Shown: one piece after another, positions 18,001 through 63,014 of the stretch
Numbering within the stretch: the stretch's first letter is position 1
Layout: each line of letters starts with the position of its first letter
Assembly (NCBI GenBank): GCA_963555815.3
Contig: CAUVWX020000001.1
Coordinates: 1,056,001-1,120,000, forward strand
Source: a bacterium
Lineage (GTDB): Bacteria; UBA8248; JACPRG01; G963555815
Length of the DNA: 64,000 nt
Direction of reading: 5' to 3'
Translations under genes and position numbers: made by a program
Notes under the pieces: generated by a model
What the model was told of the DNA's origin: nothing
Database searches by the model: none
Seen by the model: only the letters and a program-made list of their open reading frames with translations

Positions 18001-18918
18001 TCAAGCCACCCCCAGCCCCCGGCTGACCGTCAGGTCGAACGCCTCCGTCCCCTTGGCCTTTCTCAGGTTAAATCTGTAGGCGAACTCGTCCAAGTAGCGT
18101 TGCAAGTGCTTTCGGCTCACGCTGTGAAACTGGCCGAGCATTCCCCGCTTCACCAAGGCCCAGAACCCTTCAAGGCTGTTTACGTGGACGTCGCCGTCCA
18201 CGTACATTAGGCCGTGCCTTATGACCTTGTGAGGGATGATCTCGGACATTCCGGCGTAGCCCCCATATTCGTCCGTCATCAACGTGGACTCTCCCGTCCC
18301 GATAAAATCTCTCACAAACTTCTTCATGTCCTTGGCCTTCATCTTCTTCTTCGATACGGCTCTGGTCGTCACCTTGCCGCCTCGCTCCATAGCACCCACG
18401 ACAGGCATCTTGTCCGTCCCTCTTCCCCGCTTCCTTGGTTTCCGGCCGTCTCCTTTTCGGGGCCTGCCGCCGATCCACGTTTCCTCCATCTCCACGACTC
18501 CCTTCAAGAGCTTTCGCTTCCCGATTTCCTTCATGGCTCGCCTGATCTGCATGGAGATGCGCCAGGCCGTGTTCTTGTTCACATTCAAATCCCTTGAGAG
18601 TTGCAGGGCTGATATTCCTTTTCTGGCATTGAGCATGAGAGAGATGGCCAGGAACCACTTTTGAAGGGGAAGATGGGTCCCGTGGAAGATCGTGCCCACC
18701 GTCACGCTAAATGAGGTCTTGCAAGCGTGGCAGTGATGGCGTTTTTGAAGCCTTCCCGTTCTGCCCGATCCGCAGTACGGGCAGACGGGATCGTCTCCCC
18801 ACCTCGTTTTTTCCAGGTGCTCGATGCAGTCTTTTTGGATTGTGAATTTCTGGAAGACCTGTAATATGTTTATCGACTTTCCGCTTCCTGTTGGGGTATT
18901 ATTCCTATCACTCAACAA
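18001..18918 (-). CDS. IS1595-family DDE transposase, possibly inactive
   Basis: Zn ribbon CPYCG..CHAC, GTIFH and KGISALQLSRDL. Catalytic-region motifs VEMEETWIGG, LMTDEY, HVNSLEGFWALVKRG and YLDEFAYRFN. Confidence 0.92.
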   Translation of the reverse strand: MLSDRNNTPTGSGKSINILQVFQKFTIQKDCIEHLEKTRWGDDPVCPYCGSGRTGRLQKRHHCHACKTSFSVTVGTIFHGTHLPLQKWFLAISLMLNARKGISALQLSRDLNVNKNTAWRISMQIRRAMKEIGKRKLLKGVVEMEETWIGGRPRKGDGRKPRKRGRGTDKMPVVGAMERGGKVTTRAVSKKKMKAKDMKKFVRDFIGTGESTLMTDEYGGYAGMSEIIPHKVIRHGLMYVDGDVHVNSLEGFWALVKRGMLGQFHSVSRKHLQRYLDEFAYRFNLRKAKGTEAFDLTVSRGLGVA

Positions 18919-18921
18919 ATA

Positions 18922-18950
18922 ATTATACCCTGATAGGGGCGGATTGTAAA
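18922..18950 (-). promoter_or_regulatory. Sigma70-type promoter of the transposase
   Basis: Minus strand TTTACA-17 bp-TATAAT. Confidence 0.7.
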
Positions 18951-18971
18951 CATCAAAAAGTAGGAAATTGC

Positions 18972-19844
18972 GTTATTTTATTCTATTCCAAGATGGACCA
19001 AGCCTTTTTTTCGCCGGATGAGGTTCAAATTCCGTATACCCGCCTGAGTGGCACCGGACACAACTCTTTAAGCAGGGGAGGCCGCTCGGAAGCCAAGGTT
19101 AAAGAGCTTGAACGGACCTATAGAAAACGCGGGAAAACTCCCGAGGACTATTGGACCGACATAGCTGGAGGGGGTCACATATCCAAGTCAGAGCTTCTCG
19201 GCTACCCCACGCAAAAGCCCCTGAAACTGCTTCAGCGGATCATCAAGGCCAGCTCCAACCCTGGGGATGTAGTTATGGATCCCTTCTGCGGGTGCGGGAC
19301 GACCATCCACGCCGCCCAGGCGCTCGGGCGAAGGCGGATCGGGATAGACGTGTGCGTGAAGGCGTGCCAGGTGATACAGCACCGTCTTGAGGAGCATTTT
19401 GACAATATCTGGGATAGCATTGAATTTGTCGGTCTCCCGAAAACCAGGGATGACGCCAGGACTCTTGCGGACCTGGACAAGTTCAGGTTCGAGCGATGGG
19501 CGGCGTCCCTGGTGGACGGAGTGGAGGCGAACAAGAGGCAGCGCGGAGACAAGGGGATTGACGGCAAGGGCCGACTGGCAATCCGCAAGGGAAAGTTCGT
19601 TGATCTGGTGTCTCAGGTCAAGGGCGGGCACACCAGCCCAGGCGACGTGCAAGCCTTCAACGGCGCCAGGCTGCAGGCCGAAGCCGACATTGGAATCTTC
19701 ACGTGCTTTGAAGACAGGGTGACCCACAAGATGAGAGACGCGGCTGCTTCAACCGGAGAATTCATGCAGGTCCCCTGCATTCAGATCTACACAGTAGAAG
19801 ATTATTTCAACGGCCTGAAGCCCCAGATGCCGCTGGCAGCTTAA
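18972..19844 (+). pseudogene. C-terminal part of a DNA methyltransferase fused to an Mrr-like PD-(D/E)xK nuclease domain
   Basis: VILFYSK, GYPTQKP and DPFCGCGTT (SAM-binding), then FERWA..GDKGIDG..QVKGG. Catalytic DPPF motif absent. Confidence 0.85.
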
Positions 19845-43107: not shown

Positions 43108-43131
43108 CATGGTGGGCGATGCGGGACTCGA
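43108..43131 (-). repeat. 24-bp copy of the tRNA-Arg 3' end (outer att remnant)
   Basis: CATGGTGGGCGATGCGGGACTCGA is identical to 50314-50337. Confidence 0.88.
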
Positions 43132-43159
43132 GCCTGTCTTTATCCCTAATCAGGAGAAC

Positions 43160-43714: not shown

Positions 43715-43775
43715 ATTCCCCTGAAAATCGGCGATAGAGAAAGGGCCGCGGCAATCGCCGCAACCCCACGGATTC

Positions 43776-43822
43776 CATGGTGGGCGATGCGGGACTCGAA
43801 CCCACGGCCTTTGGTTCCGGAG
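43776..43822 (-). repeat. 47-bp copy of the tRNA-Arg 3' half (att site)
   Basis: Identical to 50314-50360; the identity ends at the anticodon loop. Confidence 0.95.
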
Positions 43823-44135
43823 TGCAGTTCAACATCGCCTCCGATCCCGCATACTACCTTGCAAAGCCAAGACTGACAAGACTTTTCTGGTAACGGGACA
43901 GTCTTACGGAATGACACCGATTCACATGGATTGGGATGGGTTATGGACACCAGTCTAAAAGCCCACGAATGAACAGGGATGCGCGATACAACCCGCTAAC
44001 TTTTTCAGTGTCCCGCCGAACCTCTTGGGCGCACCCCCAAAGGGGCACGTCATATTATGGTTCCTGCGGATGCACCCCACAGACAAAAGGCCCCCTATGA
44101 GACTGTCTGACGCAATTCACAATGGAGAAAAACAA

Positions 44136-44442
44136 ATGAGCGAGTTTCTGAGCGTGCAAGGAATTAGGATGCCTCTTAGGGGTCTCCAGGGCGTCCGTTT
44201 ATAGGCGTATGGAGGAGGGGATGCCCTACCTCAAGGTAGGTAGCTTGACCAGGTTTTCTAGGGACCAGGTGATTTCTTGGCTAGAGGGCCAGGAAAGTGA
44301 CCAGGAGGAGGAAAGCATCCTCTCCATTGGCGATTATAGATGTCTTGGCTGCGGCTGGGTCGGTCATGTGGAGAGACCGAGGCCCCTCAGTGAGATTTGG
44401 TGTCCGAAGTGCGGGGCAAAGGCACAGGTGGAAGCTGCATGA
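44136..44442 (+). pseudogene. Excisionase-like HTH plus C-terminal Zn ribbon, +1 frameshift near 44160
   Basis: MSEFLSVQ / ELGCLLGVSRASVYRRMEEGMPYLKVGSLTRFSRDQVISWL, then CLGCG..CPKCG. Confidence 0.75.
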
Positions 44443-44585
44443 GGCCAGGGATGCAACCTAGATTTTGTTGTAGCCGGCGGCAGGGCGGCGTCCCAGCGTC
44501 TAATTTCAACGCAAACCTCGAACCCCTACCCCGGACACCTGTCTGGCAATTTGGATTCAAAATATTGCGTGGAGACCTGTCCTCA

Positions 44586-44750
44586 GGAACATCAAGCTGG
44601 ACGGCAGAGGGCTGGGAGAAGAGTTTCTACACGCCTGGAACCCGTCCCTCTGACTACCTTGTGGCCTACGCCCAGAAGTTCAATACCGTTGAGTACGTTG
44701 CCACCTTCTACAGGACCCCTTCTGCCAGGACAGTGGAGGGCTGGAGGCGA
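44586..44750 (+). pseudogene. N-terminal fragment of a DUF72 protein
   Basis: GTSSWTAEGW..FY...YAQKFNTVE..TFYRTP..TVEGW; the remainder is absent. Confidence 0.75.
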
Positions 44751-44812
44751 GGAGCTTTGGATAGCGATGGGGGGGGAAATCTCTTGGATACAATGGGACC
44801 AGACTGCTTACC

Positions 44813-44944
44813 TCAGAACCCATCACCTAAGGCAGGTGGCTCCCTAGGCTCCTCCTCGGTAGCCTCAACGTCAATGGCTTTTTGCTCTAGCTTATCCTCT
44901 CGCTTTAGCGAGAATTTAGCAAAGAAGGCGACAAGGTTTTCCAT
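44813..44944 (-). other. 43-aa coding unit, copy A (small ORF or orphan gene tail)
   Basis: MENLVAFFAKFSLKREDKLEQKAIDVEATEEEPREPPALGDGF*; paralogous to 46767-46898. Confidence 0.7.
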
Positions 44945-44986
44945 CCCATCCTGACGGCGTTCCTTGGATTATCTAGCTTATATCGG

Positions 44987-45175
44987 CTAGCAAATTTTAG
45001 AATTAAGGCATATTCCAATCGATATGTCCCTAACATCCTCCTGGATTTGCTGCACTACGGACGCTGATACCTGCGCCCCTGCTGAAGGCGGCCGAATCCA
45101 GGTATTTAATGCGTTCATCCAAAGTTCCGCTGCAATAAGAGCCAAGAGAACTCTAGTCCATCTGTCGAATGCCAT
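44987..45175 (-). CDS. Small hypothetical membrane or secreted protein
   Basis: 62 aa, GGGAGG RBS, N-terminal DRWTRVLLALIAA hydrophobic segment. Confidence 0.6.
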   Translation of the reverse strand: MAFDRWTRVLLALIAAELWMNALNTWIRPPSAGAQVSASVVQQIQEDVRDISIGICLNSKIC

Positions 45176-45307
45176 ATTGAGACCCTCCCCTTTTTACGAA
45201 AAGTTCATCTTGCCCCTTTGCCGTCCTAAGTGGGTTAAGCGTTGCATCACGGCTTCCACCTCGGCTCGTTCATCGTTTCCCCCCTTCCATTGGAGCTCTT
45301 AGCCCGC

Positions 45308-45844
45308 TCACTTATCAGGGTTCGCCCGATTCCAGTCGGCTGCGAAGGCGGTCAGGCCATCCTCGAGCCACTGCCTGATGTCGTTCTGAACACCGGAAAT
45401 ATGTCCCATCACCAATTTTCTCTCAAGCCACAAAACCGTAGGAACCCGGTGCCCACTGAGCTCAACGGTGTCCAGAAGTTCAATCCTTACGAAAGCGGCA
45501 CGATTGTCCTCTAACCCTCCCGAAATAAACTCTTCACTCAGTTCAGTCACACCAACCTGGATAACAGGAAGGGAAATGTTCTCGGAAAGCAACTCTTGCT
45601 GCTCAGCCAAATCCAGCACCTTAACCTTTGGCAGCATGGCCCGAAGCGCAACTAAGACAAAATCTTCCAATCCCTTCTCAGTAAGCCCAAACGCATCTTT
45701 TCCCTCTACAGTGATAACAACTTCGACTTTGATCGCAGAGAGTCCTTCAAGCTCTAGGCAGTCTCCACTAGGACATCCAGCCCCTGCCACCGAAGGGGAG
45801 ACCCCCAGAAGAAGCCCCGCTAGTAAGCCCGCTATAAGCTTCAT
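45308..45844 (-). CDS. Hypothetical secreted protein
   Basis: AGGAGG RBS, signal peptide, 178 aa. Confidence 0.7.
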   Translation of the reverse strand: MKLIAGLLAGLLLGVSPSVAGAGCPSGDCLELEGLSAIKVEVVITVEGKDAFGLTEKGLEDFVLVALRAMLPKVKVLDLAEQQELLSENISLPVIQVGVTELSEEFISGGLEDNRAAFVRIELLDTVELSGHRVPTVLWLERKLVMGHISGVQNDIRQWLEDGLTAFAADWNRANPDK

Positions 45845-45923
45845 CGCCCTTCCTCCTTTCTCCTGAATTTGTGACTAAATGATACCCGCCCCCAGGGGGG
45901 AGAGGGAAGCTTTTCGCAATGCC

Positions 45924-45967
45924 GTGGCGTCCTGTAGACTTAGAAGTGGCGTCCTGTAGACTTAGAA
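45924..45967 (+). repeat. Perfect 22-bp tandem duplication
   Basis: GTGGCGTCCTGTAGACTTAGAA occurs twice in tandem. Confidence 0.95.
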
Positions 45968-46116
45968 AATGGCCAATTTTGGAGAAGAGGAGGTGTCTGG
46001 ACGCCTATTCCTAGACATCTCAAGCTGGATAGCGGAAGGAGAGAGTTTTGGTTGTCTTTCTCTTGTTTGGCTAACTAAACTGTGCCTAGATTCCTGCTGC
46101 AATAGAGGTAACTAGT

Positions 46117-46710
46117 ATGAGGCGAAGCACTTTTGCTTTAGTCGCTTTTCTCCTAGTGGCCACCCCGGCCCAGGCGGACTTTGATGACGGAGTCGAAGCC
46201 TATCGAGGGGGCGATTACAAAACCGCCTTTGAGGAATTCAAACCCTTGGCCGATGAGGGACATGCCGACGCCCAGTATTTTCTCGGCGTCATGTACGGCG
46301 TGGGCCTACGGGTGCCGCAGGATAATGGCGAGGCGGTGAAATGGTACCAGAAGGCAGCTGAACAGGGACATGTTAAAGCCCAGAATAACCTCGGGGTCAT
46401 GTACGAAAATGGCCAAGGGGTGCCGCAGGATTATGCCGAGGCGTTGAAATGGCACCAGAAGGCAGCTGAGCAGGGATTGGCCCAAGCCCAGTATAACCTC
46501 GCGCTCATGTACGCCAACGGCCAAGGGGTGCCGCAGGATTACATCCTGAGTTATATGTGGTTCACGCTGGCGGCTTCAGAGATCAGGGTTGGCGAAGACG
46601 CCTTAACAAATCTGGCCATAATCGATCAACTCATGACATCTGATCAGATTGATGAGGCTCAGCGGCTCGCACACAATTGGAAGCCAAAAGAATCTGGAGG
46701 AGATGAGTAG
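46117..46710 (+). CDS. Secreted Sel1-repeat protein
   Basis: Signal peptide, repeated AQxNLGVMYxNGQGVPQD and KAAEQG. Confidence 0.93.
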   Translation: MRRSTFALVAFLLVATPAQADFDDGVEAYRGGDYKTAFEEFKPLADEGHADAQYFLGVMYGVGLRVPQDNGEAVKWYQKAAEQGHVKAQNNLGVMYENGQGVPQDYAEALKWHQKAAEQGLAQAQYNLALMYANGQGVPQDYILSYMWFTLAASEIRVGEDALTNLAIIDQLMTSDQIDEAQRLAHNWKPKESGGDE

Positions 46711-46766
46711 CACCGATCTAGCAATAAACCCTGTCAAAGAAATTACACAAGGCACTAGCCCCCGAC

Positions 46767-46898
46767 TCAGGACCCACTTTCGAGGGCAGGGAGGCCTTTT
46801 AGGCCCTTCTCACTTGCCTCAACGTCTATCGCTCCTTCTTTCGCCTTGTCCTCTCGCTTCAGCGTGAACTTGGCAAAGAAGGCAACAAGGTTTTCCAT
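46767..46898 (-). other. 43-aa coding unit, copy B
   Basis: MENLVAFFAKFTLKREDKAKEGAIDVEASEKGLKGLPALESGS*. Confidence 0.7.
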
Positions 46899-46999
46899 CC
46901 CATCCTGACGACGACATTTTTACTCCTGGAAAACGTTTATTGACAACCCAAAGGTGTCGTCCAATACGAAGGGCACAGCCCCTCGACATTAAACTAAAT

Positions 47000-47809
47000 T
47001 CAGAAGCGCCACACCGCCAGTGCTTGCGGTGCTATTTCATCTGTTGCGGCGTCACCTAGTTTGTTGATCCAGAACTGAAGATCCAATCCAACATAGAATC
47101 GGCCAACTCCGCCAAGCAACTTGCCCAGATCGTACCGGAACTGCGGCTGTCCGAGAATATGCCACTTCACGTTATTGCCCAACTCGTTGTCCCTACCGCC
47201 AATATATTCAATATGACCTTCCACGCTGAAGTCTTGATTACCAATGCTAAAAGGAAGCGCCCAGTTAAAGTCAATCATAAAGCTATTATCTTCGGCGGGG
47301 GCTCCACCGGCTGCAAGCCCTCTGCTGTGGTCGATGTAAGCTGTCACATCCAGGTTTGCAAAAGCGAACCGAGGAATACTCCACGCAAATCGAACACCAG
47401 GAAGATACTTTCGAGCCTTAGCTTCCGATGACCAATTAAACCCGCCAATCAGACCGACGTCGGAAAGAGGACCGCCCCAATTCTTGCTGCCTCGAATTTT
47501 ATTAAAACTAAGATTCGCATAGAACTCGGCATAGACGGCTAGATCATTAAAATTTTGGTTACCGCTATCAAGGAAGTCGACGAAGAAGAAATTATCTCCA
47601 TACTTCCAGCCACTAGCATGCTGGAGAGTCAGAATATGCGTGTATGAATCGCCCCCACCGGCTAAGGTCGGTGTATCAAGATTACCAAAATTATATTGGA
47701 GTTCCGTAATACCATAGTCCGCAGAATGCGCTGGGGATGTGAATACGGAAACGGCAATTACCAAGAACCCGATCGTACTGCCGAGCCACCACTTCACCGA
47801 TAATTCCAT
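47000..47809 (-). CDS. Tsx-like (nucleoside-binding/DUF5020-type) outer membrane protein
   Basis: Signal peptide, TLQHASGWKYGDNFFFVD, QPQFRYDLG and a C-terminal WRF. Confidence 0.78.
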   Translation of the reverse strand: MELSVKWWLGSTIGFLVIAVSVFTSPAHSADYGITELQYNFGNLDTPTLAGGGDSYTHILTLQHASGWKYGDNFFFVDFLDSGNQNFNDLAVYAEFYANLSFNKIRGSKNWGGPLSDVGLIGGFNWSSEAKARKYLPGVRFAWSIPRFAFANLDVTAYIDHSRGLAAGGAPAEDNSFMIDFNWALPFSIGNQDFSVEGHIEYIGGRDNELGNNVKWHILGQPQFRYDLGKLLGGVGRFYVGLDLQFWINKLGDAATDEIAPQALAVWRF

Positions 47810-47931
47810 CCTAAGACGTTAAAATTGAGACGTCCTCTGGTCGACAAAAATGGCACAATACATCCCTTTTCTCTAGAATGTCTACACCGATAGTGAAGGA
47901 CGGTCATTGATATTCCATAAACCCCACCACG

Positions 47932-48026
47932 TCAGGAATTATTGCCTGCGCCAGGCAGTCTCTTCGGGTTCTCCTCGATGGGCTCGACGTCAACCACCCT
48001 TTCTTTTGGCTCATCTCCTACCCTTT
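47932..48026 (-). other. Diverged partial copy C of the 43-aa unit
   Basis: [31 protein letters not shown]; 16 residues from DVE to the stop, as in copies A and B. Confidence 0.55.
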
Positions 48027-48949
48027 TTGCAATTGAGTCTTCAGAACGATAGGAAGCGTGACTGTAAACTTTGATCCCTTTCCTACCTCACTCTCAACCC
48101 GAATGTCCCCACCTAAAAGGTCCGCGAGCTTCTTGGCAATCGCCAGCCCCAGACCCGTACCACCGCGTCCTCCCCCACCTGATGGGTCCGCTTGACGAAA
48201 CTCCTCAAAAATGTAGTTCAGCGCCTTTTATCCATGCCAATTCCTGTGTCGGAGACTTCCAGTGCCAGGTGTCCATCTTCATGCCAGGCCGAAACCTTCA
48301 CCTCGCCCTTCTCGGTGAACTTCGCCGCATTGCTCAGGAGATTAAGAAGAATCTGTCCCAGTTTCTCTTGATCTGTCGCCAGGCGTGGGATATCAGGTCT
48401 GATCTCCTGGATGAGACGCACTTGGCCAGCCTTTAACATCGGCTTCACGGTTGACGCCGCTGTATGGATGACATCTTGGACATTGAACGATTGGACAAAG
48501 ACCTCCATCCGGCCGGCCTCTATCTTGGAGAGGTCAAGCAACCCGTTGATGAGATTGAGAAGGTGCTCCGAGCTGATGAGAACCTTTTGCAGGTTTTCCG
48601 CTTGCAAGGTCGGGATTTGTCCCTCGGTCTTCCGCAGAACCAAACCGGTGAAACCCATGATGGAGTTGAGGGGCGTACGCAGCTCATGGGACATACTGGC
48701 CAGAAAGTCGCCCTTGGTGCGGCTCGCTTCCTCGGCGGTCTCTTTGGCCGCTTGTAGCTCTTGGTTCTTTTGCCCTAACAGCCCCTTCTGCTCGTCAAGT
48801 TCTCGTATGACCGATTGAAAGACGGTGTCATATTGATCCTTGGCTTCCTCCAAGGTTTTGCGATTCGCTTCGGAGCGGGCGAGTTGCTTCCGAAGGATGC
48901 GATTTTCCCGCTCGAGCTTCTGAAGACTGGCTTGGGAGTCTTCCGTCAT
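48018..48949 (-). pseudogene. Sensor histidine kinase with a frameshift near 48225
   Basis: [19 protein letters not shown] and DTGIG. The shifted frame continues [33 protein letters not shown] to a stop at 48018. Confidence 0.88.
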
Positions 48950-48984: not shown

Positions 48985-49860
48985 CTACGTACCGAGCAAG
49001 AGCATTGCGAAGATTTCGTGGTGCATGATGGGTTTGGTTCTGTCCGATTCCTGCGGACCGATTTCGCCGTAGCTGTAGAAACCGCAAAACGGCACTTCGT
49101 TGCCGATACTTTCCTTGAGAATCCTAACCTCCTCACCGGTCTTGGTGCCGAGCAAAAGCCTGCGGGCTGCACAAGAGACGATTCCTGCAGCCTCCGGCTT
49201 CTTTGTGTCGGGAAACCCTTGCAGCGCCCTTCGGATCGATTCCGCGGTGCCATCGAGAATTGCCGCGCGGTCGGTGATCGAAACCTGCACTCTCGAACCT
49301 TCGGGGATGTCAGCGAGATAGGTGATGGCTCCTGTGTGTTCGTCGATATTGCCTGGCGTCTCGCGGAGATATTCGGGCTCGTCGTCGTCGTTCAGAACGA
49401 TGAGCGGAAATTCTGCCTTTGGCTTGAACTGATCCCCCAAGAAACGACGATAGAAATCGATGGCAGGCGCGCCATCGATTTCGTAGACGACAGCGCCATC
49501 CGAGCGCGTGATCACTCCCGGCTCGCCGACCGGCCTCCAACCGTGTGCAGCGCCCAACGAGTACACCAGCGGACCTGACAGAAGCAAGATAGGTACGCCA
49601 TCCGAGACGACCTCTCGGCCAAAGAACTGAAGCGTTTTGACCACTCTGTAATGGTCCCCCGCCGCGCCTCCAAACAGCGTCACGTTGTCACCAAGCGCCT
49701 TTGTAAGTGCTTCCACAATCTGCTGGCCGCTCATCGTGAGACTCTCGGGCGTCGCGATGCACAGACTCGGCTCGAGTGTTGTCTGGGCCCTGGCCTCCGC
49801 GACGGCCCGCGAACAGGCTGCCTCAGCACCTTGACTCACCTCCCGTGCAAGGCCCGTGTG
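48985..49860 (-). pseudogene. FIST-domain (NosP-like) sensor, N-terminally truncated
   Basis: FGGAAGD, HGWRPVG, VYEIDGAPA, SCAARR and GFYSYGEIGP. The 5' end abuts the integrase fragment. Confidence 0.82.
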
Positions 49861-50309
49861 GTGAGTTATTTTCACTTAGATGGGAGGACCTGGACTTTCA
49901 GAATGGCATCGTTCGGGTTTTGGACACCAAGAACGGAGAGAGACGGGAAATCCCTATGAGCGACACCCTGCGTAAGACCCTCCAGCGAATTTCCCGCCGC
50001 CTGGATTCACCCTACGTCTTTCCAGGGAAAACAGGAAATGGCCTTGTGGAAATCAGAAGGCCTTTCAAGAGGGCGTTGCAGGAAGCAGGAATTGAGGGGT
50101 TTGTGTTTCATGACCTCCGGCACACATTTGCTTCTCACCTGGTCATGGCGGGCGTAGATCTCGTGACAGTGAGGGAATTTCTTGGCCACAAAAGGATGGA
50201 AATGACCCTCCGGTATGCCCACTTGGTACCGGACCACAAGAGGGCGGCCATCAACCGACTGGACACCAGGCAAAAGAAATGGGTCACCGCGATTGCTGCA
50301 ACCCCTTGA
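49857..50309 (+). pseudogene. C-terminal fragment of a tyrosine integrase
   Basis: GELFSLRW, TKNG, FHDLRHTFAS, LGH and RYAH. N-terminus and first catalytic Arg missing. Confidence 0.9.
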
Positions 50310-50315
50310 ATTTCA

Positions 50316-50392
50316 TGGTGGGCGATGCGGGACTCGAACCCACGGCCTTTGGTTCCGGAGACCAACGCTCTATCCACCTGAGCTAATCGCCC
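50316..50392 (-). tRNA. tRNA-Arg(CCG)
   Basis: 77-nt cloverleaf GGGCGATTAGCTCAG...TTGGT-CTCCGGA-ACCAA...GGTTCGAGTCC...ATCGCCCACCA, with CCA encoded. Confidence 0.97.
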
Positions 50393-50484: not shown

Positions 50485-51897
50485 TCATGAGAGAGCGAAC
50501 TGCTCCTCGGTGGGCTCCGCTCAGCAGTACCAGGGTTCTTCTAGGTAGGGGATCGTGGCCCGCGCAGGCAGGTGGATAGAATCCGGGAGCTTTCTCACGG
50601 AGACGCCCGCCGCCTCATGGGCCAGCGTCCATATCTCCGCAAAGACATTTTGACGGGTTTCTCCCCGTTCATCTCCCGCCCTGACCAGTTCCAGGACATC
50701 CTTGTGCAACTGGTCCATCCTCGGGTCGGGATGTCGCCAGGAATAGCACAAAGCCGCTTCGTCAAATTCTCCCACCGTATCCCTCGTTTCGGGCAGCTCC
50801 AGCAGCCTGGAGCCGGCCGGGATCAGGAGGCGAATCGCGAGCTGGATCGGGGCGACTTGCGCGATCAGATCCAGCTCCACCAGGACCGACAGCAGGTCCA
50901 GATATCCCTCCATCGATGTCCACGGCGTGAATGTCACAAACGTGGGGTTTAGCCCCAGCCGGAGTTCTCTGAATATTTGGACGACACGAACAAAATCTTC
51001 GCGGGTATGGCCTTTGTCCAGGATGGAGAGGATTCGGTCGTCCACAGACTCGACGGCGCTCGTGACGAAGAGACAGCCGGTGTCCCTGAGGACGGGGAGA
51101 AAGGGGGAGTGTTTCAGGAGATGCTCAATCTTGATGGTTGCGTCGTAGGTAACGTTCGGGTGTCGCTGGTGCAGGGAGTTCACCAGCCCAATGGAGTGGC
51201 GGATTCCGTTGAAAAAATCCGGGTCTCCAAACGTGATGTGCTGCGCACCTGCGGCCACCTGTCTCTCGATGTCTTCCAGCACAACGTCTCGCTGGACGAT
51301 CCGAAACGCCCCCTGATAGACCGGCACGATGGGGCAATGACGGCAGAGGTGTTTACAGCCGCGACTCGCCTCCGTATATCCCACAATATGCTTCTGCCCG
51401 TTTCCCAGGTTCAATCGCGCATATTGGGACAGGGCTGCCAGATCGCTTCGGTCCGGGACCAGAAACTTTTGTCTGGCCAATGAGACAAGGGGTTCGGGCT
51501 GAAAATCTTTCGCCCCGCCGCTCTCCCCGTTGCGCAGTCTTCCAACAAGACTGACCAGCCCCTCCTCGAACTCGCCGCCGAGGATGGTGTCGACGCCGAG
51601 CTTTCTCAGGAAATCCGCGTTGACCGGAGCATAGAGGCCGTAAAAGCATACTTTCGCATCCGGATTGAGTGTTTTTACCTGTCTGACAACCTGTGTGGCA
51701 ATGCGCGTCGCCGTGTGCATGGGCACATAGAAAGCGATGAGGTCAGCGGCCCGGATCGCTTCCTCTTCCAGGCGTTGCCTGGAGAGGTCCACGCAAGTGA
51801 CCGACGCCCCCTCCTGCCGCAGCCAGACCGCAGGGGAGGCGAGTCCAAATGGCTGGCGCCCTAGCTCGTAGGTCGATATCAGAACGACGTTCACCAA
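50485..51897 (-). CDS. CUAEP-tail radical SAM selenoprotein (UGA at 50521-50523 read as Sec)
   Basis: CKHLCRHC radical SAM motif and an N-terminal B12-binding-like domain. C-terminus reads PWYC-UGA-AEPTEEQFALS*. Confidence 0.88.
50491..50508 (-). promoter_or_regulatory. Candidate bacterial SECIS hairpin
   Basis: GAGGAGC-AGUUC-GCUCUC stem-loop. The apical loop is 19 nt after the UGA and contains GU. Confidence 0.55.
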
Positions 51898-61491: not shown

Positions 61492-61628
61492 GGCGACGAT
61501 CTACTCCTCACATCACAGCCTCTGAATCGTAGCATAGGGCTTCTGTGGCCGCTCTCTCTCGGAAAGGTTTTCCCTGCACGATTTTGTAAGTGATATCATT
61601 AAATCTCTTCTTGCAGGAGAGAGTGCCC

Positions 61629-63014
61629 ATGACGCTTCGCCGGATGTCTCTAGTCGTCCTCCTTTTTTCCCTCCTCCTTGCGCTTCCCACCGAGGGGGCC
61701 CGCCGGGTTGCTATTCTTGACCTTGAGAACCAGTCTGAGGGTCGCCTCAAGGAAGAATTTAGCTGGATCGGCCTCAATGTGCCCGAAACCCTCGCTGGAA
61801 AGCTCTCAGAGATCCCAGGTGTCGAGGTGATTGAGCGGATTCAGTGGAAAAAATTGGTGGATGAGCTTCGCCTTTCTCTCGTTTACCTCTATGACCACGA
61901 TGGGAAGGCCGCCGAGCTGGGAAAGCAGCTTGGGGCGCAGGTCATAGGTCTTGGCTCCTTTGTCGTCTTTGCGGGAAGTGTCAACGTTAACATCCGTTTT
62001 GTGGACGTCGAGACAGCGACGATTCTTGGGGCTTTGAATCGTGTGAGCCCAGTGGACGACCGCCTCTTTGAGGATTTTGGGGCCCTTGCCCTTGAGGCGG
62101 TCGAGGTCCTGAACCGGCGGGTGATAGGCGGTGAGGTGGCTTCTTTGCCTCCTGGGGAGGCGCTGAAAATCCCTGAGAGGACAAGGGGGAAGATCGAGAG
62201 ACCTGAGACGAAGACCTTTGACGCTTATGCGCTGTATGGAAAGGGAAGGAAGGCCTATGATCGAAACCCCTTGGATGAGGCCATTGCACTCCATTGGCAG
62301 GCCCTCGCCCTTGACCCGGACTACGCCGAGGCATGGCAGGACCTTGGAGAGGTCCTTCGAAAGCGCGGGAGGTTTAACGAGGCGGAGGAGGCGGTACGTC
62401 GCGCCTTTCATATTTTCTTTGACAGAGGAGATGAGAAGGGGGAAGGGGGTGCCCACAGAGACCTCGGCTTCGTCGCCAATGACCGCGGGGCCCACGACGA
62501 GGCTGAGAGGCGCTTCCGGAGGAGCCTGGCGATGAGTAGGAAACTTGGCAACGAGCAAGATGTCGCGGCGGCGCTGAATAACCTTGGCGAGGTCGCCCGT
62601 AACCGCGGTCGCTTCGACGAGGCTGAGAGGCTCTACCAGGAGAGCCTGGCGATTAAAAGAAGACTTGGCAACGAGCTAAATGTCGCAGCGGTGCTGCATA
62701 CTCTTGGCGAGGTCGCCGAGAGCCGCGGGCGCACCGACGAGGCCGAGAGGCTCTACCAGGAGAGCCTGGCGATTAGTAGGGGGGGTAGGGGATTCTATTC
62801 GCCAGGCGTTGCAAACACGCTTTTCAACCTCGCCATCCTCGAAAGAGACCGGGGCTCAACGGACCAGGCCATCGACTACGCGTTAGATTCCCTTGAGATC
62901 TCCCGCAGGACAGGAGGCCCATTAGCGGTCAGAGCTGAAAAATTCCTCCGACAGCTTGGGCTTAGGGGATCGTTAGAGATCGTCCATCCTCCAAGCCCAG
63001 CCCCCCAACCTTAA
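61629..63014 (+). CDS. Secreted protein with CsgG/FlgO-like N-domain and TPR repeats
   Basis: Signal peptide, VAILDLEN, VIER and RFVDVETA, followed by 40-aa TPRs. Confidence 0.8.
   Translation: MTLRRMSLVVLLFSLLLALPTEGARRVAILDLENQSEGRLKEEFSWIGLNVPETLAGKLSEIPGVEVIERIQWKKLVDELRLSLVYLYDHDGKAAELGKQLGAQVIGLGSFVVFAGSVNVNIRFVDVETATILGALNRVSPVDDRLFEDFGALALEAVEVLNRRVIGGEVASLPPGEALKIPERTRGKIERPETKTFDAYALYGKGRKAYDRNPLDEAIALHWQALALDPDYAEAWQDLGEVLRKRGRFNEAEEAVRRAFHIFFDRGDEKGEGGAHRDLGFVANDRGAHDEAERRFRRSLAMSRKLGNEQDVAAALNNLGEVARNRGRFDEAERLYQESLAIKRRLGNELNVAAVLHTLGEVAESRGRTDEAERLYQESLAISRGGRGFYSPGVANTLFNLAILERDRGSTDQAIDYALDSLEISRRTGGPLAVRAEKFLRQLGLRGSLEIVHPPSPAPQP

Follow-up and report, generated by a model that had tools for sequence, protein, structure and literature searches.

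Locus and copies of the repeated unit

The stretch analyzed, referred to as the window, comprises 64,000 nucleotides (nt) of a bacterial genome of 2.08 Mb (contig C1, positions 1056001-1120000; the genome under study is designated G000, its contigs C1 and C2, and the sister species used for comparison G001). The window contains a 6.5-kb island bounded by a tRNA-Arg(CCG) gene (50316-50392) and a displaced 83-nt copy of the 3' part of this tRNA. The island harbors repeated copies of a unit of ~146 bases with a reading frame of 43 codons. Seven copies of the unit, A to G, were found, including five in G000 and two stubs in G001. Three of the copies are located in the island:

44813-44959, minus strand: copy A, RRQDG codons followed by a 43-codon open reading frame (ORF; 44813-44944); conserved start at 44956
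46767-46913, minus strand: copy B, RRQDG codons followed by a 43-codon ORF (46767-46898); conserved start at 46910
47932-48015, minus strand: copy C, last 28 codons only

A first-pass annotation of the window had given the gene order as FIST-kinase, copy C, a gene for a protein of 269 amino acids (aa), copy B, Sel1 plus two hypotheticals, copy A, and a DUF72 fragment plus xis, and this order was confirmed. ORF calls also bear out A and B as 43-codon frames of the minus strand, and the sequence contains both the RRQDG-coding DNA preceding them and the 16 residues that A, B, and C share between DVE and the stop. Copies A and B are identical at 109 of 147 bases (74%) in a gapless alignment extending from RRQDG to the stop. 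A profile built without copy C detected this copy with E values of 9.6e-8 (DNA) and 1.7e-4 (protein), the best chance matches of the same profiles having E values of 1.3 and 3.7, respectively. Copy C therefore aligns significantly, whereas the annotation had considered that its failure to do so would reduce the case to a simple duplication. Copy C had been placed at 47932-48026; it is a true homologue, but the homology is confined to 47932-48015. Bases 48012-48026 consist of the final codons and stop of the kinase gene, followed by the ribosome-binding site (RBS) and ATG of the next gene. Copy C is devoid of its first 21 codons and of a Met, and it is fused by microhomology to the start (RBS and ATG) of the gene following that of the kinase.

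The three copies in the island are thus real, as annotated, although the unit is not confined to the island. Copy D (C1:761040) is flanked by duplicated host genes, and copy E (C2:169606) is located within an island at tRNA-Phe. In G001, copy F corresponds to the unit's second half, inserted together with a marR gene between ~130-bp duplicates, and copy G consists of the last ~12 bases of B plus the 3' flank of B, beside Sel1. Pairwise identity between copies is 74 to 87% (79 to 87% over ~95 to 115 nt), and all five G000 copies are in the lowest 0.7 to 4.4% of 2-kb windows for guanine-plus-cytosine (GC) content. The unit was detected in none of 60 relatives by DNA comparison and in only 1 of 50 genomes of the phylum, that of G001, by the protein profile; as judged from these genomes, it is found only in this genus. 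No published description of the unit was found in the literature covered, which mostly excludes subscription journals.

Ends of the unit and coding signal

Copies A, B, D, and E start at CGTCAGGATGG, mutually within 3 nt (0 to 3 nt), and copies A, B, and C end on the same stop codon with no indels among them. Homology begins ~12 nt ahead of the ATG and extends to the stop codon; the flanks of the copies are unrelated. Internal truncation affects five of the seven copies, with the cut at approximately +63 (C), +66 (F), +97 (E), +114 (D), and +135 (G). The unit thus combines natural ends with scattered breaks. Reads were examined for 8 of 24 listed runs as assembled contigs, in which rare variants are dropped; no empty site for A, B, or E was found in these contigs or in G001.

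In codons 2 to 22, pooled over four copies, seven synonymous and four nonsynonymous changes were found on 13.3 and 49.7 sites, respectively (P = 0.003), and the ratio of nonsynonymous to synonymous changes per site (pN/pS) was 0.00 to 0.20 in five of the six copy pairs. These comparisons indicate that codons 2 to 22 have evolved under purifying selection, which, with the conserved ORF length, supports the proposal of the first-pass annotation that the unit may encode a small protein under selection. The six synonymous codon pairs named in that annotation for A and B are present. Its broader statement, that A and B differ mostly at synonymous sites over ~28 codons, holds for codons 2 to 22 (five synonymous changes and one nonsynonymous change) but not for codons 23 to 31 (four and six, respectively). 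Both of the strain differences listed within the ORF of A in run X4 alter amino acids, in apparent agreement with present decay. The AlphaFold model of the peptide had a mean predicted local distance difference test score (pLDDT) of 56. The low-confidence prediction for the peptide is a single helix (residues 5 to 17) and a charged tail; our guess is that it might be a small membrane- or protein-binding accessory factor.

Searches for a parent gene

None of 12 candidate longer proteins contained copy A. Among five candidates of near-equal length, four were retained, all variants of A, B, or D. A profile search of 1.84 billion representative sequences returned three matches, corresponding to two copies of the unit and a fungal repeat protein, the latter judged to be a chance match, and a profile search of a 5.8-billion-cluster set returned variants of known copies only. 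Scans of metagenome, viral, and species-genome contigs, which require short exact peptide matches and miss distant relatives, were negative for metagenome contigs (0 of 192) and viral contigs (0, 0 of 127, and 0 of 99). Partial matches of 11 to 18 residues in 2 of 34 species genomes were dropped as chance. Plasmids gave one match with an E value of 2, and phages gave none. Nothing was found for the unit in Pfam, NCBIfam, or PDB, or in the ESM Atlas at a threshold of at least 0.9; in PHROGs, one of six members had one match, to an unnamed family (E = 0.09). The proposal that the unit is the tail of a backbone gene did not gain support from these searches, since no full-length parent was found in either candidate frame, and it survives only as the split recombinase considered below.

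The tRNA-Arg island and its cargo

The island is delimited by the following features:

50316-50392, minus strand: tRNA-Arg(CCG), target of the island
49860-50309, plus strand: C-terminal fragment of a tyrosine integrase (PF00589, E = 1e-29)
43941-43951, plus strand: TTATGGACACC, repeated at the integrase end, putative arm-type site
43740-43822, minus strand: displaced 3' part of the tRNA plus flank at the far end of the island (83 nt, 87%)
43108-43134, minus strand: third copy of the tRNA 3' end, 27 nt

An intact tRNA at one end, a tRNA fragment at the other, and an integrase remnant beside the tRNA characterize a tRNA-targeted integrase island, and the variable content between relatives and atypical composition are likewise those of such an island. 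Relatives of the integrase fragment (76 to 83%) adjoin other tRNAs in the family. The 27-nt tRNA end is probably the remnant of an older integration. The three copies of the tRNA end and the integrase stump indicate repeated integration and decay. The histidine kinase and xis-like genes are both frameshifted, and no indel is present there among those listed in four runs. The island is decayed, and the setting is of a known kind, a tRNA island that has grown by repeated integration and decay.

The sequence ATGGACACC is present at both ends of the island (43941-43951 and 50250-50265), and run X4 has 12 additional bases behind position 50259, matching the doubled form found in G001 and at related integrase ends. 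The ATGGACACC/TTATGGACACC sites are probably arm-type sites. A 22-bp tandem duplication at ~45902-45945 is present as a single copy in runs X4 and X11, and the adjacent stretch recurs upstream of different cargo genes in G001. Scans for promoters and terminators returned six and six sites versus 2.8 and 3.8 expected, none of them assigned to the unit, and Rfam returned the tRNA plus one match with an E value of 0.46 and nothing else.

The cargo between these limits is as follows:

48985-49875, minus strand: FIST-domain ORF
48018-48949, minus strand: histidine kinase, frameshifted
47000-47809, minus strand: 269-aa ORF without family match
46117-46710, plus strand: Sel1-repeat gene, inverted relative to the attachment (att) site in the G001 island
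45308-45844, minus strand: 178-aa ORF
44987-45175, minus strand: 62-aa ORF directly upstream of copy A
44565-44772, plus strand: 5' fragment of DUF72 fused to a scrap of the polB 3' end
44137-44442, plus strand: excisionase-like helix-turn-helix plus zinc ribbon, frameshifted, weak family matches only

The label "Tsx-like porin" previously given to the 269-aa ORF was not substantiated, as this ORF has no match in Pfam, PHROGs, NCBIfam, or PDB. The FIST protein has a weak match to NosP (38 bits versus a cutoff of 450) and lies next to the frameshifted kinase gene; the two genes are possibly a decayed sensing operon. The DUF72/polB scrap is debris of a cassette that is intact in the tRNA-Phe island. 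Homologues of the xis-like and zinc-ribbon gene directly follow tRNA-SeC in two genomes of another family (L191:6490-6894 and L192, ~18700-19290).

In G001, the same tRNA is occupied by a different island of 2.7 kb, consisting of an inverted Sel1 gene, a 238-aa gene, and a 229-aa gene. The 229-aa gene precedes copy D in G000. The 178-aa gene adjoins tRNA-Asp in G001, with no unit in the 18 kb examined there. As a control, the ends of the homology of the cargo shared with G001 were located, and they coincide with gene borders (0/+10 nt for the 229-aa gene, -90/+6 for the 178-aa gene, and +18/+7 for marR). A stub of the start of the 238-aa gene, which is whole in the G001 island, is present at ~45225-45275 (minus strand), and an 11-base piece of the start of this gene also precedes copy D.

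A proposed orphan passenger gene as the best explanation

We tentatively propose, with a probability of about 0.42, that the unit is an orphan small passenger gene of 43 codons in a decayed tRNA-Arg island. Related tRNA-targeting islands would have brought the gene in on several occasions, and it would now be decaying in their debris. Divergence of the copies may have occurred under selection in separate donor elements, and their differing flanks could result from illegitimate recombination joining island modules near gene borders, as for the neighboring cargo. On this view, the unit would stand at cargo boundaries because it is itself a module, without making the joints. The direct observations on this point are the five low-GC copies, the coding-type substitutions, the shared natural ends, the scattered internal breaks, and the reshuffling of cargo between the two species. 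Degenerate elements are described as accumulating at tRNAs (10.1101/2020.12.28.424599) and joints are described near gene borders (PMC3029335). The locus resembles the tycheposon island model (10.1101/2020.12.28.424599) in having a whole tRNA plus partial copies, a fragmented tyrosine integrase, an xis-like stump, and unrelated cargo; it differs from it in that no intact element is present here and the repeated piece is a small ORF rather than a tRNA fragment.

Several observations weigh against the passenger gene. No donor carrying the unit was found near related integrases, xis, polB, rep, serine recombinases, or cargo homologues (0 of 132, 0 of 4, and 0 of 37 loci). The D-E pair, with a pN/pS ratio of 0.77, displays no selection signal. 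The first Met is preceded by an RBS of modest strength (-4.1 kcal/mol at a 3-nt spacing in B, D, and E), the median being -5.8 kcal/mol for 460 long ORFs and -3.2 kcal/mol for random ATGs. The 12 bases preceding the ATG, which read RQDG, are invariant at 11 positions in four copies, exceeding the needs of an RBS. The common 5' boundary of similarity noted in the first-pass annotation is real and sharper than that of ordinary debris, since the 5' ends of the unit agree within 3 nt versus a spread of ~38 nt for three polB tail fragments of G000. The antisense frame is equally synonymous (33 versus 31 codon differences). Finally, the ends of the unit form an inverted repeat, which has to be taken as chance if the unit is a passenger gene.

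A possible ultra-small mobile element

The latter observation could be accounted for by an ultra-small mobile element bounded by inverted repeats of 8 to 11 bp (CGTCAGGA...TCCTGACG) with the ORF filling the inside. Such an element would be moved in trans, adjacent deletions leaving it at gene joints. We regard this explanation as doubtful. The candidate repeats are as follows:

46903-46910 (B) and 44949-44956 (A), minus strand: CGTCAGGA, invariant 5' end of the unit, candidate left inverted repeat
47930-47937, minus strand: TCCTGACG, spanning the stop codon of C and exactly complementary to the 5' end, candidate right inverted repeat

Between the right end and the complement of the left end, eight of eight positions agree in C, seven in F, six in B, and five in A, and an 11-bp match between the left end of E and the right end of C was reached in 0.4% of 5,000 random draws. 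These comparisons were, however, made post hoc and rest on different copies; within single copies, the match is limited to 6 bp in B (P = 0.10) and 4 bp in A. The eight bases end 1 of 2,505 long ORFs, the first six end 40, and the 8-mer is found within one mismatch in 1.3% of the 30-nt windows of the island. Copies B and D begin 7 and 10 nt inside another reading frame with its own RBS, and a 4-bp direct repeat surrounds B. Copy A lacks a matching direct repeat, and the left and right flanks are unrelated genes, so that no clean insertion is apparent. There are no near-identical dispersed copies (74 to 87% identity), and no partner element with the same ends was found. With 16 pairs within 4 kb, longer stretches with these ends are approximately as numerous as expected by chance. 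The nine long repeats checked all end in other sequences, and the inverted-repeat pattern, searched in five genomes, matched B and unrelated sites taken as chance.

A precedent for one ORF between inverted repeats is provided by the mycobacteriophage mobile elements (MPMEs; PMC4351075, PMC3029335), which are also small, with terminal inverted repeats and common truncated copies. The MPMEs are ~440 bp in length, with a 123-aa ORF, identical copies, clean preintegration sites, and a 6-bp addition. In contrast, the unit is ~146 bp long, its product of 43 aa is far below the size of the MPME ORF, its copies are 74 to 87% identical, and no empty site was found. In its boldest form, which appears rather unlikely, the proposal is that of a 146-bp mobile element, one-third as long as an MPME and containing a 43-aa ORF under selection that terminates inside the right repeat, the element being moved in trans, landing at gene starts, and cutting and rejoining island cargo in this genus, or else of the tail of a self-splitting recombinase for which no tRNA target is needed.

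A possible tail of a split recombinase

According to the second option, which taken alone we find quite unlikely, the unit would be the last 48 codons, cut off from a recombinase whose gene contains the crossover site. After every integration, a tail beginning at an identical 5' position would remain, the whole gene existing only in the excised circle. The integrase of Mx8 is split by its own att site, and the helix-then-strands pattern of the peptide presumably resembles recombinase C termini. Such a tail would explain the fixed 5' end, the coding-like RRQDG without a strong start, the purifying selection, and the missing parent. However, the boundary contains no tRNA or transfer-messenger RNA (tmRNA) core, with best matches of 7 to 9 bases versus 8 to 12 for random 50-mers, and no dyad (7 to 10 of 20 versus a null median of 9). 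The four left flanks differ, indicating that there is no fixed target. The peptides scored no higher than shuffled sequences on a profile of 83 tyrosine-integrase tails or on two small serine-integrase tail profiles, with hhalign probabilities of 0.1 to 0.2%. As these profiles were narrow or thin (four sequences in one serine-integrase test, which is weak), the split-recombinase proposal is weakened by them rather than refuted. None of the recombinases found in G000 and G001 lies beside a copy, and their tails are unrelated; no N-terminal partner is present by any copy in the contigs, in which circles are not visible. Split integrases are known in archaea (PMC8371274), and the SSV type is comparable in that a gene-like fragment with a fixed 5' end is found at an island junction. 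Unlike with these integrases, there is no tRNA or tmRNA att core, fixed target, partner fragment, or profile match here.

Proposed recurrent recombination points

The first-pass annotation had also envisioned the copies as recurrent recombination points, either site specific or acting via the homology of the copies, that stack cargo in a cassette-like array at the tRNA. Three co-oriented copies do part unrelated cargo, the cargo order differs between the two species, and the copies are 79 to 87% alike over ~95 to 115 nt. Recombination at boundary sequences is moreover a published idea (PMC3029335). Phage boundary or linker sequences, as cited in that source, are likewise short and conserved at module borders, whereas the unit is found at a minority of junctions and is often cut, and no exchange between its copies could be shown. 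As we read the ORF maps, the unit is represented by a stretch longer than a 12-nt stub at three of seven junctions in this island and at none of four in the sister island. No complete unit accompanied the 229-aa and 178-aa genes when they moved. The internal breaks fall at different offsets in five of the seven copies, scattered breakpoints being what the annotation itself had associated with random debris. Only one informative site is available among four copies, and no mosaic signal could be shown. One contig spans the unchanged island in runs X2 and X4, with the reservation that contigs drop rare variants, and no excision joint at a unit was found among the joints listed in contigs of four runs. 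Four further runs contained the known contexts, with loose ends matching copies A, D, and E, except for one, a mixed consensus with an agreement of 0.62, which may be a blend. Since the same cargo is present at other G001 loci without a complete unit and with equally sharp ends, the cassette-spacer reading fails. It is largely refuted, and we consider recurrent recombination at the copies very unlikely.

Possible antisense frame and comparison with integron cassettes

Hardly credible, in our view, is that the complementary strand is the source of the coding signal, the unit being the 3' end of a gene ending in ...KKATRFSIPS with its stop at the shared boundary. The antisense frame shares third positions and has 33 synonymous differences; an antisense TGA is present at the boundary in four of four copies, and in A the antisense frame runs in frame with the DUF72 fragment. 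However, the antisense amino acid changes are less conservative (mean BLOSUM score of -0.87 versus -0.44), the frame is serine rich, resembling a shadow frame, and the shared stop of A, B, and C is left unexplained. Among 4,239 candidates, only two longer proteins contained the antisense frame, and both were strain variants of the antisense ORF of A.

The ends of attC sites have the form RYYYAAC...GTTRRRY. No R-box pair of this kind was found on either strand, no IntI exceeded the TIGR02249 cutoff in the two genomes, no stable hairpin was detected in the flanks (z scores of -1.6 to +2.7), and the units had no shared fold (-0.9 to -2.2), confirming the annotation's statement that the unit is not recognizable as an integron attC. 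Integron cassettes and clusters of attC sites without an integron integrase (CALINs; PMC4889954) similarly display a short repeat between unrelated, mostly co-oriented genes, but the absence of IntI, canonical R boxes, and a shared hairpin, and the coding selection on the repeat itself, led us to reject this assignment.

Other features of the genome

Fragments of polB, mostly the 3' end plus a GC-rich flank, recur at island junctions of G000 (C1:128879-129040, 137962-138069, 933007-933099, and 973598-973750), and the tRNA-Phe island contains polB in its entirety (C2:174381-176633), alongside DUF72 and a Rad51-like gene. The polB fragments are a second debris family, whose parent is known. Two integrases with 90% identity (C2:160945-162183 and C1:125209-126446) lie 5' of tRNA-Phe and tRNA-Leu(CAA). 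The other contig contains a second copy of the 5' half of tRNA-Phe (C1:974056-974100), suggesting that the att sites lie in this half of the tRNA. Each of three tRNA-Ser genes adjoins a large serine recombinase element, the three elements being nearly identical (C1:688647-696099, 1393240-1400695, and 1416138-1418796).

Upstream of the tRNA-Arg in the window, a radical SAM gene (50485-51897, minus strand) displays TGA read-through into a CUAEP tail. With TGA translated as U, its product scored 650.7 bits against NF040546 (cutoff of 500), and the genome has a tRNA-SeC; the gene likely encodes a selenoprotein of a known family. A TPR gene of the window (61590-63014, plus strand) has five further related regions in the genome, and its paralogue beside copy E carries CsgG and TPR domains.

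Implications

If the inverted ends of the unit were real, it would rank among the smallest mobile units carrying an ORF and would represent a new source of mosaicism in islands. The orphan-gene reading that we prefer is ordinary, but it would provide a useful control: a repeat at the boundaries of an island need not be a recombination site when all of the modules are sharp ended.

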